From positions 1 to 22,505 of the IMG/VR virus record IMGVR_UViG_2585427793_000014: a stretch of 22,505 bases of DNA; one strand, 5' to 3'. Every line of letters starts with the position of its first letter. The first letter of the stretch is position 1. Shown piece after piece: positions 9,063 to 12,899 of this stretch. The position numbers and the translations under genes are program-made. The notes below the pieces were generated by a model, which worked only from the letters and a program-made list of their open reading frames with translations, was not told where the DNA came from and made no database searches. Origin of the DNA: a virus. Lineage: Duplodnaviria > Heunggongvirae > Uroviricota > Caudoviricetes.

Positions 9063-9385
9063 ACTTTCAGGCCCCTCTCATGTAACCAGTAGGCTGCACG
9101 CAGCCTGGCGTTTTCCTCACCGGCAAGCAGTGCGCGGATAATCCCGACCGCCTCGCTGTCGTCGTCCTTCACCGCGGTATGAAGCGTGATCCCCCGGGCC
9201 ACGCCACGCTTTATCGTGATGACGCCTTTTTTCTCCAGTGCGCGAAGATGCTCCACCGCTGTATTCACTGAACGGTATCCCAGCATGGTTGCCACCTCCT
9301 GATTGGTTGGCGGGAAGCCACGTTCTTTCTGATAAGAAATCAGCATATCCAGCACCTGCTGCTGGCATTGAGTTAACGTCGTCAT
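9059..9385 (-). CDS. LexA-like N-terminal DNA-binding domain protein lacking the S24 peptidase domain (108 aa)
   Basis: MTTLTQCQQQVLDMLISYQKERGFPPTNQEVATMLGYRSVNTAVEHLRALEKKGVITIKRGVARGITL aligns by eye at roughly 50% identity with the LexA winged-helix domain (LTARQQEVFDLI...[36 protein letters not shown]...SRGIRL). No Ser/Lys autoprotease region; ATGA overlap with the upstream gene. Confidence 0.6.
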   Translation of the reverse strand: MTTLTQCQQQVLDMLISYQKERGFPPTNQEVATMLGYRSVNTAVEHLRALEKKGVITIKRGVARGITLHTAVKDDDSEAVGIIRALLAGEENARLRAAYWLHERGLKV

Positions 9386-10035
9386 GCCGCCATCTCCCTG
9401 ACCAGTTTTTCCGCCTGCTGGCGAACCTGCGCCAGAAACGCCTCACCACATGCCTCAAGTTCATCGCGCCCGATGTAGCTGATTGCCGGTCCCTTCCAGG
9501 TCTTGTCAAAAACAGCAATAGCACCAGCGAAAAAAGCTCCTGTCGGTACCTGCTTCTCGTCTTTCGGGATAAACCAGACAGGCAGTTCAAAACCAATACG
9601 CCCACGAATAAAAGCAATATGATCTGCATATTCCGGCCACCACACTTCGCTGGTGGCAGCTTTGATCAGGAAAACATAGCGCCCGCCCTTATCACGCATG
9701 GCACTGGCATGTTTCATGATGTAACGCATGCCGGTGATGTATTGCCCATCATGTTGACTGGCGCGGCTGTATGGAGGATTACCAAAGGCAGCACCTTTAA
9801 GCCCCGCAAGGCGTTCTGACCAGTCATGCGCCAGCGCGTTGTCTTCCGCCGTGTAATACGCGGCACATTTGGCGTTATCACCGTCAGTGAACAGATCCAG
9901 AACAAACGGGCCAAACAGGGTGTTAATTCCCCAGAAAATGTTGTCCGGCGTGCACCACTGATCACCCACTTCCTTCAGTTCATGGGCTGGTTTGTTCCGC
10001 AGTTCCACCAGCTCCTGGCAATATTTATTACTCAT
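9382..10035 (-). CDS. dam: Phage Dam-type DNA N6-adenine methyltransferase
   Basis: Contains the catalytic GNPPYS (NPPY) motif; about 218 aa from ATG 10033-10035, which overlaps the upstream stop (TAATG). The track ORF extends to 10068. Confidence 0.8.
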   Translation of the reverse strand: MSNKYCQELVELRNKPAHELKEVGDQWCTPDNIFWGINTLFGPFVLDLFTDGDNAKCAAYYTAEDNALAHDWSERLAGLKGAAFGNPPYSRASQHDGQYITGMRYIMKHASAMRDKGGRYVFLIKAATSEVWWPEYADHIAFIRGRIGFELPVWFIPKDEKQVPTGAFFAGAIAVFDKTWKGPAISYIGRDELEACGEAFLAQVRQQAEKLVREMAA

Positions 10036-10523
10036 TAAGCCCCCACGTAATTCCCTGACAGATACCACTCATCACCCGATACAGCTCGCTTGCTGCTTTT
10101 CCGTAAGCACCGCTCACGACGCGCCAGAAAATTGTTTCGTTCTGGCTGGGAGTGGCTTTCACGGAATGCCGCCATCCACACGGTTGCAGCACGACGGTAT
10201 AAGCCCCTTGACTCCAGTTCTTCAGCCTGGCGGGTCAGGCACAAAATCACCCGGGGATCGTTAGTGCCGACATAGAAATTGCGCACAGGTCTGGTTTCAC
10301 GAACTGGTTGTGGTTCCGGCTCCTGCGCTCTCTCAGTCAGGCGTGGGAAATGTCTGCGTGTATCTCCTTCACAACGGTGAGCCACACGCCCACTCTGACG
10401 TAACTTGCTTGCTGACTGCAGAACGCGCTGCCGTGAGTAACCAGCAAAAGCATCCGCAATGTCTCCGGAAGTACACCCCGGATGGGCTTCAATGAATTTC
10501 TGAACTTCATTCAAAAGACTCAT
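10035..10523 (-). CDS. YfdN-like protein with PerC-like C-terminal region (putative transcriptional regulator)
   Basis: C-terminal ...LESRGLYRRAATVWMAAFRESHSQPERNNFLARRERCLRK resembles the PerC/Pch motif as I recall it; size and position (just after the O-like gene) match CPS-53 yfdN. Start at ATG 10521-10523. Confidence 0.45.
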   Translation of the reverse strand: MSLLNEVQKFIEAHPGCTSGDIADAFAGYSRQRVLQSASKLRQSGRVAHRCEGDTRRHFPRLTERAQEPEPQPVRETRPVRNFYVGTNDPRVILCLTRQAEELESRGLYRRAATVWMAAFRESHSQPERNNFLARRERCLRKSSKRAVSGDEWYLSGNYVGA

Positions 10524-10525
10524 GA

Positions 10526-11518
10526 TCACCCCCTGAATCCTACCGGGATCTGGCTGTAGTCCACGTTGTCGTAACTGGCTTTGAAGTACGGGTCTTCACG
10601 TTTTTCTGTGTGCGTGCTGACGGACGGCGATAAGCGCAGGGAAAGCTCATCCCATTTTTCCCGCAACTTCGACGGGCTGAGCACGTTACGGCACCAGAAC
10701 GGATCACGGCTGACGCGGCTGTACATTTCGCAGATTTGTTTGTGAGTACGACCATCCTGCACACACATCAGGCGAATTTCGTTTGCCCATGCTGTCCAGT
10801 TCGGTTCTTTGGGACGAACCACCTCGCCGTCACATTCGGCGGCCTGCTCGTACAGGGCGATGATTTTTTTCCAGAGACACTGTGCGCAGGTCAAATCATC
10901 CTGCGTTCCCCACTGGCGCTTTTTAGGGCTGAATACAACCGCATCAGGATGGCGAGTTAAAAACTCCTGTTCAGCCGTTTGCGTGTCCGGTTGCGAAGCG
11001 TCCGGACGAGAAGAGGTTTTATTCTCTGTAGTAATCTCTGTTGTATTCTCTGTAAGATCATTGGGCCATTTTGACCCGATGACAGCGTGTCGTTTTGAAC
11101 CAATGGATCGTGTCATTTTGCGCCCATCCATCAGGTCACTTTGACCCGATGGAGAAGTGCATTTTGACCTGATGGATTCGTTCACTTTGACCTCTTCTAA
11201 AAGCTCACTTTCATAGTTGATCGTGTAGAAGTTGGTCATGTCACGCTTCGATTTATTGAGTTGCTCGCGACGCAAAACCCCAAGTGATTTCAGGCTTGCA
11301 AATGTGCGTTTCAGAGTGGACTCTGACCAGAACGGAAACTGCTCCAGCCACTGTTCTGTCGTGTTATAAACCCAGCGAATTCCGCCATGCTCAGTGCCTG
11401 AATTCGTTTCATTCAGCCAGTAATGAAGCTGCTGCAACACAATTGCCTCATTCAGACCAATACGACATGCAAGATCACGATTTATCACAATGGGCTGGGA
11501 TGTCATTAACAGGCTCAT
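10526..11518 (-). CDS. Replication initiator (O-like, iteron-binding replisome organiser)
   Basis: N-terminal winged-helix-like domain (MSLLMTSQPIVINRDLACRIGLNEAIVLQQLHYWL...); origin-type iterons lie inside the coding sequence in the linker region, as in lambda O; position downstream of the cro/CII-like genes. ATGA overlaps at both ends. Confidence 0.75.
   Translation of the reverse strand: MSLLMTSQPIVINRDLACRIGLNEAIVLQQLHYWLNETNSGTEHGGIRWVYNTTEQWLEQFPFWSESTLKRTFASLKSLGVLRREQLNKSKRDMTNFYTINYESELLEEVKVNESIRSKCTSPSGQSDLMDGRKMTRSIGSKRHAVIGSKWPNDLTENTTEITTENKTSSRPDASQPDTQTAEQEFLTRHPDAVVFSPKKRQWGTQDDLTCAQCLWKKIIALYEQAAECDGEVVRPKEPNWTAWANEIRLMCVQDGRTHKQICEMYSRVSRDPFWCRNVLSPSKLREKWDELSLRLSPSVSTHTEKREDPYFKASYDNVDYSQIPVGFRG
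11010..11200. repeat. ori: Putative replication origin: about 6 iterons (consensus YCAYTTTGACCCGATGGA, about 22-bp period) plus 3 upstream TCTCTGT repeats, inside the O-like gene
   Basis: Directly visible repeats: CATTTTGACCCGATGAC (11065), CGTTTTGAACCAATGGATC (11088), CATTTTGCGCCCATCCATC (11110), CACTTTGACCCGATGGAG (11135), CATTTTGACCTGATGGATT (11157), CACTTTGACCTC (11179); also TCTCTGT at three places in 11020-11052. Confidence 0.65.
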
Positions 11519-11739
11519 GCCGCACCTCCGAGATGCTTCATGTTTTTTCCGGAGCGAAAGGCTATAAGCGGCATACTGACGCGGTAATTACGACCCAGCG
11601 GTTCACAAATCACCTTCTGACATTCACGGTCCACCAGGCTAACACGTAGAACATGCCCTGCAGGCGTGGTGTACCACTGACCGGGGCGAGGACAACGGAA
11701 AGTCTGATTGGTAAATCGTTTGAAAATATTCCGGATCAT
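11515..11739 (-). CDS. Hypothetical 74-aa protein
   Basis: Translationally coupled (ATGA overlaps) to both the upstream Rha-domain gene and the downstream O-like gene. No family recognised. Confidence 0.4.
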   Translation of the reverse strand: MIRNIFKRFTNQTFRCPRPGQWYTTPAGHVLRVSLVDRECQKVICEPLGRNYRVSMPLIAFRSGKNMKHLGGAA

Positions 11740-12899
11740 TTGCGCCCCCTTACCTCTGAAGAGTTCAGCGACGAATGAATAAGACGGGCAAGAAATGCCG
11801 CATCGTTAATTCGGTCATACAGACTTACAGCCAGAGGTGATTCAGCTTTTTCCAGCATGGGATAAAGCTGCTGCAACCAGACCTGATGAATTGATGAAAT
11901 GTAGGAATAGAGAACACTGGCGTTATGTGCAACGTCGCTCGGTACAGCGGGCTTTGAAAGCTGTTTCTCCATCTGGTTAAAGGCATTGATGTATGCCTCT
12001 TTGAACTGGGCAGCACGTTTACCCGTGAAACCCATAGCAAGAAACGCAAAGCCATCGCGGGTTATTTGATAGCAAGGTAGTTTGCGAGTACCGCCGTTGG
12101 GCTGGCGTACCAAAATTGATGTCTCCGCAAAATTGCGGGCACAAAACTCTGGAGAACAATCCAAAATGCGAATCTTTTTCAGAACATCGTCATGACGTTT
12201 AGAGAAGAAGTCAGCAACAGCCAAAGAAGATGTAACAGCCTGACCATCAACGATGGCAATTTCAGGTTGAGAGAGGGTTGGGAGAGTAGTCATAGTGACA
12301 GCCCCGGTAGTCAGTTTTTTAGAAAACTCACCACATGGGACGCCAATCACAGAGGTGGTGAGACGTACAGGGTTGGCGTTACCGGAGACTACCGAACCCG
12401 GCCCGACCGAAGTCGGCCCTGTACGCCCCACCATAATTTGGGCGTAGCAATGCTCATGACACGAAAAAACCGCATGAGCGCGGTTATGCTCAGTAATCAA
12501 TTTCAGGACGCCAATCCCGGCACCCGCTTTATAAGGTGCCTGAACAGTGTAACGTCCCGGAATGGCAGAATCAATGTGCTGGTGGTCCTTCACACTCAAC
12601 AAAATCACGCCTGAATTTCCACAAAGGACTAAAGCACTCATGCGGGTAGTCTTTGCGAAGATAGATAACGCGCTGAGTTTCTGGCTCCCAACGAATAACA
12701 TGGACATAAAGCCCTCTTCCATCACGAAACCAGCGGTTAAGTTCCTGCACAACTCGCCCCCCACAGTCAGGTAAAGTTCTCTGTGGTTACTTACAGCCAG
12801 GTGATTTGGTAATCTGCATTCATGCCGTAACAACAGGTGTTCAGCGACACTGACCACCAGCTGTTGCGACAAACGGTTATTTGCCGTTAAACTGTTCAT
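11736..12899 (-). CDS. Rha-domain phage regulatory protein with about 200-aa N-terminal extension
   Basis: Residues about 205-320 (LSQPEIAIVDGQAVTSSLAVADFFSKRHDDVLKKIRILD...GTRKLPCYQITRDGFAFLAMGFTGKRAAQFKEAYINAFNQME) match the Rha pattern. ATG 12897-12899 overlaps the CII-like stop (ATGA). The N-terminal 200 aa have atypical composition. Confidence 0.55.
   Translation of the reverse strand: MNSLTANNRLSQQLVVSVAEHLLLRHECRLPNHLAVSNHRELYLTVGGELCRNLTAGFVMEEGFMSMLFVGSQKLSALSIFAKTTRMSALVLCGNSGVILLSVKDHQHIDSAIPGRYTVQAPYKAGAGIGVLKLITEHNRAHAVFSCHEHCYAQIMVGRTGPTSVGPGSVVSGNANPVRLTTSVIGVPCGEFSKKLTTGAVTMTTLPTLSQPEIAIVDGQAVTSSLAVADFFSKRHDDVLKKIRILDCSPEFCARNFAETSILVRQPNGGTRKLPCYQITRDGFAFLAMGFTGKRAAQFKEAYINAFNQMEKQLSKPAVPSDVAHNASVLYSYISSIHQVWLQQLYPMLEKAESPLAVSLYDRINDAAFLARLIHSSLNSSEVRGRK

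Follow-up and report, generated by a model that had tools for sequence, protein, structure and literature searches.

A 10-nucleotide repeat conserved as DNA adjoins the iterons

We analyzed a 22,505-nucleotide (nt) stretch of viral DNA (IMG/VR virus record IMGVR_UViG_2585427793_000014, positions 1 to 22,505; hereafter, the window), in which an O-like replication initiator gene harbors two sets of repeats. The gene is a 330-amino-acid (aa) open reading frame (ORF) at 10526–11518 on the minus strand; its repeats are an array of long iterons and a set of short repeats reading TCTCTGT on the plus strand. The short repeats proved to be the local form of a 10-nt unit, CAGAGAnTAC on the gene (minus) strand. 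This unit is conserved at the DNA level, stands in a fixed register with the iterons, lies in a segment of low duplex stability, and is kept independently of the neighboring genes and of the type of C-terminal domain (C-domain) in the initiator. By analogy with characterized systems, 10980–11200, within the stretch of the initiator gene that encodes the linker, is putatively the origin from which a lambdoid, mEp460-like prophage replicates, and this replication is predicted to depend on the initiator. We consider it very likely that this region is an origin and that the 10-mers are an integral cis element of it.

Exact TCTCTGT copies were found at 11023, 11035, and 11047, with a period of 12 bp, and Tandem Repeats Finder reported a 12-bp repeat of 2.7 copies. 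The window contained 11 copies on both strands compared with 2.4 expected, a number reached in 0 of 100 shuffles. A preliminary description of this DNA had these repeats preceding the iterons, which holds on the plus strand; in gene orientation, they follow the iterons.

Close to moderately diverged relatives were collected from species-representative genomes and IMG/VR. They comprised prophages of Citrobacter, Raoultella, Enterobacter, Izhakiella, Trabulsiella, E. albertii, and others, and they carried two to four ACAGAGA units directly past the last iteron. Synonymous sites were analyzed in a gap-free alignment of 51 distinct enterobacterial sequences, the diverged group of which showed 77–81% DNA identity to the window. 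Third-codon-position diversity was 0.337 in the part encoding the N-terminal domain (N-domain; 83 of 100 third positions variable), 0.165 in the iteron zone (19 of 46), and 0.019 in the 12-mers (0 of 12; Fisher p = 1.2e-8 for variable third positions in the 12-mers versus the N-domain). Conversely, the middle base of the third codon in the 12-mers varied freely, giving Asn, Ser, or Ile. As the silent sites are fixed while this base varies, the pattern is the opposite of that produced by protein-level selection. The phages HannyBb and mEp460_ev081 are 78% identical overall, yet their 45-nt block is identical to that of the window. The copy number of the 12-bp unit ranged from two to four among close relatives, always in frame (four in L011 and L109, two in L012 and L103, and three identical ones in L017), which is consistent with slippage constrained by frame and by a minimum unit number.

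Distant N-domain relatives (45–63% aa identity) had CAGAGAyTAC units right after their own, different iterons. The carriers included the phages Providencia PSTCR8lys, Erwinia PEp14, Klebsiella SopranoGao, and Pseudomonas AF; the Firmicutes phages S. aureus phiIPLA88 (gp17), Bacillus TP21-L (gp4), and Lactobacillus mv4 (ORF292); and prophages in Bacillus, Vagococcus, Paenisporosarcina, and Geobacter-like genomes and in one Bacteroidota genome. A second IMG/VR scan was seeded with an alignment of diverse N-domains. When the 8-mers past the N-domain were counted without bias in 63 diverse viral loci, ACCAGAGA ranked first (50/63), above the iteron core TCAAAATG (43/63). Units, called as clustered matches with at most one mismatch, were then counted in 75 distinct distant loci: at least two clustered units were found in 69 of them and at least three in 27, and no locus had zero units. 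Unit density was 6.3 per kb in the zone versus 0.073 per kb elsewhere, both strands being counted, and the units were always on the gene strand in the relatives examined. Spacing between units in the distant loci was 12 nt in 58 cases, 11 nt in 28, and 9–10 nt in nine.

The units lay in more than one reading frame in 32 of the 69 loci, where, for example, TRDY is followed by TETT. These differing frames rule out an explanation at the peptide level, in which the repeats would be kept as a Thr-Glu-x-Thr linker needed by the protein. Such a linker is suggested by the enterobacterial units, whose 12-nt period holds a single frame and gives TENT, TEIT, or TEST. However, the third-codon residue in these same units can be Asn, Ser, or Ile, no variation occurs at the synonymous sites of ACA and GAG, and the origin-encoded linker peptide is dispensable in lambda and pSK41, all of which makes conservation as a peptide extremely improbable. 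The aligned sequences therefore indicate that the constraint acts on the DNA and not on the peptide.

Furthermore, Bacteroides phages (31% N-domain identity; L200 and L202–L229) showed a variant at the same position, ATACCAGATAGTAT...ACAGATAGTAAT. Their Bacteroides-type unit is CAGATAGTAT, and the variant ATACCAGATAGTATATATACAGATAGTAATAC was invariant over two subclades with differing flanking DNA. A Stenotrophomonas phage with 36% N-domain identity had no clear copy of the 10-mer. Given the Bacteroides variant and the Stenotrophomonas phage, the motif appears to drift together with the N-domain.

The repeats keep register with the iterons and travel with the N-domain

We observed that, in 81 of 105 loci, the first unit begins 20–21 nt past the point at which the last iteron core starts. 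In the other loci, the distance was larger by multiples of ~22–23 nt, which suggests that a degenerate last iteron was missed by the search pattern. Iteron periods across relatives were 23 bp (142 cases), 22 bp (55), and 24 bp (40), so that two units (11 + 12 or 12 + 12 nt) make up one iteron period.

The 10-mer element went with the N-domain and the iterons, whatever the type of C-domain. Relatives sharing all three carried a lambda-O-type, a Phg_2220_C, or another C-domain, Phg_2220_C being found in many Citrobacter and Enterobacter prophage relatives. In contrast, SfII and SfIV, which share the C-domain and the host but differ in the N-domain, showed different iterons and no 10-mers. Some family members (L029–L031, from Deferribacterales and other metagenome-assembled genomes) have two tandem N-domains in one long protein; there, the N-domains are followed by many short iteron-like repeats and then by the 10-mers.

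Co-occurrence with neighboring genes was analyzed in 86 related loci that keep at least two repeats and for which 1.4 kb or more of upstream sequence was available. Of these loci, 12 had the 74-aa gene and 16 the Rha-like gene. The counts contradict the earlier proposal that TCTCTGT forms a second array for the Rha-like or the 74-aa product. This proposal, in which a nearby regulator (the Rha/Ash-like 387-aa or the 74-aa DUF4222 protein) binds the repeats, draws on the position of both genes immediately upstream in the same operon and on the clear sequence specificity of the repeats. However, HannyBb and mEp460_ev081 keep the identical 45-nt block with cII directly upstream, and Firmicutes, Bacteroidota, and Pseudomonas phages keep the element beside unrelated neighbors. 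We therefore find a regulator array scarcely credible. What survives of the proposal is that the short repeats are read by a protein, as a sequence-specific DNA element implies some reader, although not as an extra array for the neighboring products. By these comparisons, the N-domain appears to be the only protein feature that travels with the 10-mers. Given this co-occurrence and the conservation of sequence, orientation, and register, the simplest candidate reader is the initiator itself.

The same loci bear on the possibility that the block is kept as a recombination joint for the exchange of N-domain/origin and C-domain modules. Mosaic breakpoints do fall at its downstream edge: SfII and SfIV show 96–97% DNA identity to the window through the C-domain, ending at ~11022–11028, and relatives with other C-domains diverge from the window a few codons beyond the 10-mer block. 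Nevertheless, the block common to different N-domain families is the adjacent GC-rich one (Table 1), not the 10-mers, and second-order selection for recombination cannot fix a 10-mer across phyla when the flanking gene is at ~45–50% aa identity. A recombination joint is thus a most unlikely reason for the conservation of the 10-mers. The GC-rich block appears to mark the mosaic joint zone, with breakpoints clustering around it. Its sequence (GTCCGG...GCAACC.GAC, encoding RPDASQPD or CPVAxQPD) is common to SfII and SfIV, which have other N-domains, and to L007 and others, which have other C-domains. It is among the most stable 2–5% of the window, and the IMG/VR relative L070 has a 12-nt in-frame deletion within it.

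Duplex stability and the proposed mechanism

Within the gene, duplex stability is lowest in the 40-mer that begins at 11017, which is 70% AT. Its ΔG (duplex free energy) was −44.6 compared with a window mean of −54.4 (standard deviation 4.3), which places it in the top 1.8% least stable of the 22.5-kb window. Neither strand of the 10-mer block showed structure as single-stranded DNA (ssDNA). Across 71 distant loci, duplex stability likewise reached a local minimum at the block (mean z about +1), next to an iteron zone that was stable (z −0.5 to −1.0), and the least stable 30-mer within ±150 nt had a median start +17 nt from the first unit.

A passive AT-rich unwinding element without any reader, in which the repeats are a by-product of slippage in a low-complexity linker, would account for the block being the stability minimum of the gene and for the copy number of two to four in close relatives, and the AT-rich region of lambda is not known to need a defined motif. 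However, a passive element would keep its composition and not its sequence, whereas the synonymous sites here are frozen. The two G's and the TAC are fixed across phyla while the flanks vary, and the Firmicutes unit, CAGAGACTAC, is 50% GC. We consider a purely passive element improbable.

The account that we favor, with moderate confidence, is that the region is an origin with the 10-mers as an integral part, that opening takes place at or next to the 10-mer block, and that the initiator is the reader. N-domain dimers would bind the six 23-bp-spaced, partly dyad, A-tract-centered iterons and form an O-some-like complex in which the DNA is bent compactly, a step proposed from the fold and from homologous systems. 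The TCTCTGT repeats would be the next, integral element of the origin and not an accessory array. Strain from the iteron complex would open the adjacent 10-mer block, which is the most likely place of opening. The N-domain would most likely contact the 10-mers sequence-specifically, possibly on one melted strand, by reaching from the last iteron, and these contacts would stabilize the open complex, as TrfA, RepE, and DnaA do on their 13-mers. The exchangeable C-domain, of the lambda-O type here, would then recruit the host helicase machinery.

Several points weigh against this account. Locus-wide, the block was only moderately unstable in the distant and Firmicutes versions (median 20th percentile), and the Firmicutes unit is not especially AT-rich, so that low stability alone is insufficient as an explanation; the true opening site could lie just downstream of the block. 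The position weight matrix of the units was built from pattern matches and therefore overstates the invariance of the specified positions, whereas the enrichment and frame results are independent of it. No P-, DnaC-, or DnaB-like gene adjoins the initiator among the neighbor genes of this prophage, which bears on the helicase-loading step. Our literature search found no experiments on this origin or on any family member; we infer binding, opening, and the identity of the reader, and for binding, opening, and helicase loading the basis is analogy with lambda O, pSK41 Rep, and SPP1 G38P.

The main rival is that a universal host protein (primase, replicative helicase, single-stranded DNA-binding protein, RNA polymerase, or DnaA) reads the 10-mers instead of the initiator. 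CTG and CTA are known primase start trinucleotides; the complementary strand of the motif always has CTG, the Firmicutes versions have CTA on the gene strand, and the motif is nearly the same in hosts of several phyla. Conversely, the motif is confined to this one N-domain family, being absent from SfII, SfIV, and SPP1 G38P, and it becomes CAGATAGTAT in the most divergent N-domain subgroup. A DnaA-box scan detected no box near the origin, and the fixed 20–21-nt distance from the last iteron suggests a partner that sits on the iterons. A host reader is therefore unlikely in our judgment, albeit the most serious of the alternatives.

With the initiator as the preferred reader, a broader proposal can be made tentatively. 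The CAGAGAnTAC array may be an unrecognized, phylum-spanning origin signal of one huge initiator family, which lacks a Pfam model and exceeds 4,000 clusters (50% identity, E ≤ 1e-10). The winged-helix N-domain would read the array, probably on one melted strand, in register with the oligomer bound to the iterons. The array might then be the phage counterpart of the DnaA-trios and 13-mers and set the helicase loading site whatever the C-domain. The short repeats show that a large uncurated initiator family, with members in phages of E. coli, Klebsiella, Pseudomonas, Staphylococcus, Bacillus, Lactobacillus, and Bacteroidota, has a defined 10-nt DNA word in common, which lies at a fixed distance from the iterons and is under stronger conservation than the protein code around it. 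If this word is indeed an opening or loading signal, it would allow origins in thousands of phage genomes to be located by a simple sequence marker. It would also be a concrete target for studying how winged-helix initiators melt DNA, which is poorly understood outside DnaA and a few plasmids, and it would explain why the N-domain/origin module and the helicase-recruiting C-domain shuffle independently.

A literature search with the 10-mer strings returned only unrelated primers. Likewise, no report on a CAGAGAnTAC element or on mEp460 replication was found in a literature whose older part was only partly covered; only reviews on lambda, RK2, and RepA_N were retrieved.

Organization of the initiator gene and the prophage locus

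The features of the gene are listed in Table 1. Six iterons, each a 19-mer, were found with center-to-center distances of 23, 23, 23, 23, and 24 bp. Their core on the gene strand is (G)GTCA-AAR-TG(AC), and the dyad symmetry is partial (3–7 of 8 arm positions), some copies being weak. The degenerate 15-mer CATYTTGACCYGATG, allowing at most three mismatches, had 10 matches in the window compared with 2.3 expected in the shuffled window, a number reached in 0 of 100 shuffles, and five of the matches lie within 11067–11174. The about six iterons of the preliminary description were thus recovered above chance, whereas its 22-bp spacing has to be corrected to 23 bp with one interval of 24. Its placement of the repeats inside the linker-coding part also agrees with our result, as all repeats fall at codons ~108–170 of the ORF, between the N- and C-terminal domains. 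Iteron half-sites and the 10-mer showed only a vague CA-purine-run resemblance, which was not used.

Table 1. Features of the initiator gene and of the putative origin within it (sequences are given on the gene strand)
Feature	Position	Strand	Sequence or remark
Coding region of N-terminal DNA-binding domain (aa 1–112; putative binding)	11183–11518	−	Predicted winged-helix fold
Iteron 1	11177–11195	−	AGAGGTCAAAGTGAACGAA
Iteron 2	11154–11172	−	TCAGGTCAAAATGCACTTC
Iteron 3	11131–11149	−	TCGGGTCAAAGTGACCTGA; dyad 7/8
Iteron 4	11108–11126	−	TGGGCGCAAAATGACACGA; most degenerate copy
Iteron 5	11085–11103	−	TTGGTTCAAAACGACACGC
Iteron 6	11061–11079	−	TCGGGTCAAAATGGCCCAA; dyad 6/8; adjoins 10-mer array
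10-mer block, whole	11016–11058		Proposed unwinding and loading element
10-mer unit 1	11043–11052	−	CAGAGAATAC; starts 21 nt past start of last iteron core
10-mer unit 2	11031–11040	−	CAGAGATTAC
10-mer unit 3	11019–11028	−	CAGAGAATAA
GC-rich block	10980–11015		Beside 10-mers; inverted GTCCGG/CCGGAC arms at 10985–10990 and 11002–11007
Coding region of C-terminal domain, lambda-O-like (aa ~185–294)	10637–10966	−	Presumed helicase-recruiting module

The initiator gene, labeled as a hypothetical protein in RefSeq, gave a full-length match to phrog_391 in PHROGs ("replication initiation O-like", E 1e-99). BLASTP aligned aa 147–294 with the C-terminal half of lambda O (32% identity over 148 aa, E 5e-25), while the N-terminal ~110 aa showed no BLASTP similarity to lambda O. 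By sequence, the initiator thus appears to be a chimera, in which an O-type C-domain is joined to an N-domain of a different family, and not a lambda O family member. Pfam and NCBIfam scans of the initiator identified no family; up to E 10, Pfam gave only weak Slx4 and Cdc6_C matches and did not match RepA_N (PF06970). The N-domain of five other family members had no Pfam match either, and a PDB sequence search with the initiator found nothing. A fold search predicts that the N-domain is a winged helix-turn-helix (HTH) domain of the RepA/DnaD-NTD (N-terminal domain) fold. Clustered at 50% identity, the N-domain family comprises 10,625 clusters for E ≤ 1e-3 and 4,478 for E ≤ 1e-10.

The closest phage is mEp460_4F5, with 97.8% identity across the initiator gene. 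A 261-bp piece spanning the origin was found at ≥80% coverage in 1772 of 5426 complete E. coli genomes; the mEp460-like prophage type is thus present in about a third of them, and the iteron array itself is routine. The locus is a lambdoid early-right operon, in which the initiator is preceded, in this order, by genes for a LexA-type repressor (CI), Cro, a CII-like protein, the Rha/Ash-like protein, and the 74-aa DUF4222 protein and is followed by PerC/YfdN-like, Dam, LexA-like, and RusA genes. The next gene after the initiator encodes a 164-aa protein (10035–10529, minus strand) with a PerC-like, YfdN-like C-terminus and an uncharacterized N-terminal half, and 75 of 86 enterobacterial relatives have it together with the initiator. 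The Rha/Ash-like 387-aa ORF (11736–12899, minus strand) has an Ash domain at aa 117–212 and a Rha domain at aa 223–312. Its first ~116 aa had no match, so the true start may be internal. The related E. coli AR_0085 prophage lacks this gene and has another short segment between its CII-like and DUF4222 genes. The DUF4222 stop codon overlaps the initiator start codon (ATGA, 11515–11518), which suggests translational coupling.

The prophage has its own Dam-type methylase (9382–10068, minus strand). A GATC at 11056–11059 lies between the last iteron and the first 10-mer (TGATCTTACAGAG) and is present in most, but not all, enterobacterial relatives; with the prophage Dam, it may link methylation or SeqA to the use of the origin. 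An Rfam search of 10400–11800 gave no match, a promoter scan detected no sigma-70-like site within or near the origin, and two terminator-like matches were at chance level only. An RNA or promoter reading of the region was dropped on the basis of these scans.

Comparison with known replication systems

SPP1 oriL also lies within an initiator gene, gene 38 (encoding G38P), with direct repeats in the linker-coding part followed by an AT-rich DNA unwinding element (DUE). G38P has a Phg_2220_C-type C-domain, as do many relatives of the window gene, for example L007. However, its N-domain is unrelated (BLASTP E 0.8), the repeats are others, and CAGAGAnTAC units are absent. G38P was therefore rejected as a characterized member of the family, given its unrelated N-domain and lack of 10-mers.

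The RepA_N family, represented by pSK41 Rep, resembles the initiator at the fold level, with a winged-HTH N-domain, central repeats that are bound (putatively so in our case), and an exchangeable C-domain. They differ in that the initiator lacks sequence-level membership, as Pfam RepA_N was not matched, and in that the window is a phage and not a plasmid replicon. We found no report in the literature of a CAGAGAnTAC-type array in RepA_N origins.

Ori-lambda consists of four dyad iterons and an adjacent 39-bp high-AT region that unwinds; in-frame deletions within this region abolish origin function in cis but leave O able to complement in trans (PMC6022878). Stx phages normally have six iterons, and lambda O binds AT-rich ssDNA (PMC7466680). 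The preliminary description assigned the ori-lambda architecture to the window. This fits the intragenic iterons, the lambda-O-like C-terminal half, the AT-rich segment, and the lambdoid operon, whereas the N-domain is not that of lambda O and a P-like gene is missing. Both origins are in the middle of the initiator gene, in the part that encodes the inter-domain linker. Both have ~18–19-bp, A-tract-centered, dyad-like iterons, of which lambda has four (18 bp, with 20/24/23-bp spacing) and the window six, like the origins of the Stx phages 933W and P27. A low-stability region downstream of the iterons, then a GC-richer segment with an inverted repeat, a homologous C-domain, and the same operon context are also shared. 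In the protein alignment, the peptide encoded by the 10-mers (TENTTEITTEN) is opposite to that encoded by the AT-rich region of lambda. As the TCTCTGT repeats occupy the place of this region, they are not "extra" in position. The differences lie in the N-domain, which is unrelated by sequence, in the iteron sequence, in the absence of a P gene after the window initiator, and in the segment past the iterons, which in lambda is an AT-rich tract by composition and in the window is a defined 10-mer in three copies, kept across phyla. Lambda itself has a single one-mismatch copy of the 10-mer, CAGAGAATTC, at 39164–39173 (encoding SENS), directly past the AT-rich region, and this was the sole such match on both strands of the 2.1-kb lambda locus. 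This copy may be a remnant of the same element or a chance match, for which the background rate of the window gives roughly 1–2%.

DnaA acts on 13-mers and trios. With these oriC elements and with the 13-mers of RK2 oriV (TrfA) and the repeats of F oriS (RepE), the 10-mer array shares three to four direct repeats of 10–13 nt adjoining the double-stranded DNA sites of the initiator. These repeats lie in the least stable part of the origin, have a strand-specific orientation, and depend on their exact sequence beyond composition. Rep proteins bind the repeated DUE 13-mers sequence-specifically on one strand (PMC4081077). The motif sequence and the fold family of the initiator are different, the element of the window is intragenic, and ssDNA binding is proposed here by analogy. 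Taken together, the origin and its iteron array are ordinary, and what appears to be new is the short-repeat element, which resembles the DUE repeats of oriC and RK2 in position and logic, not in sequence, and which is conserved to an unexpected depth.

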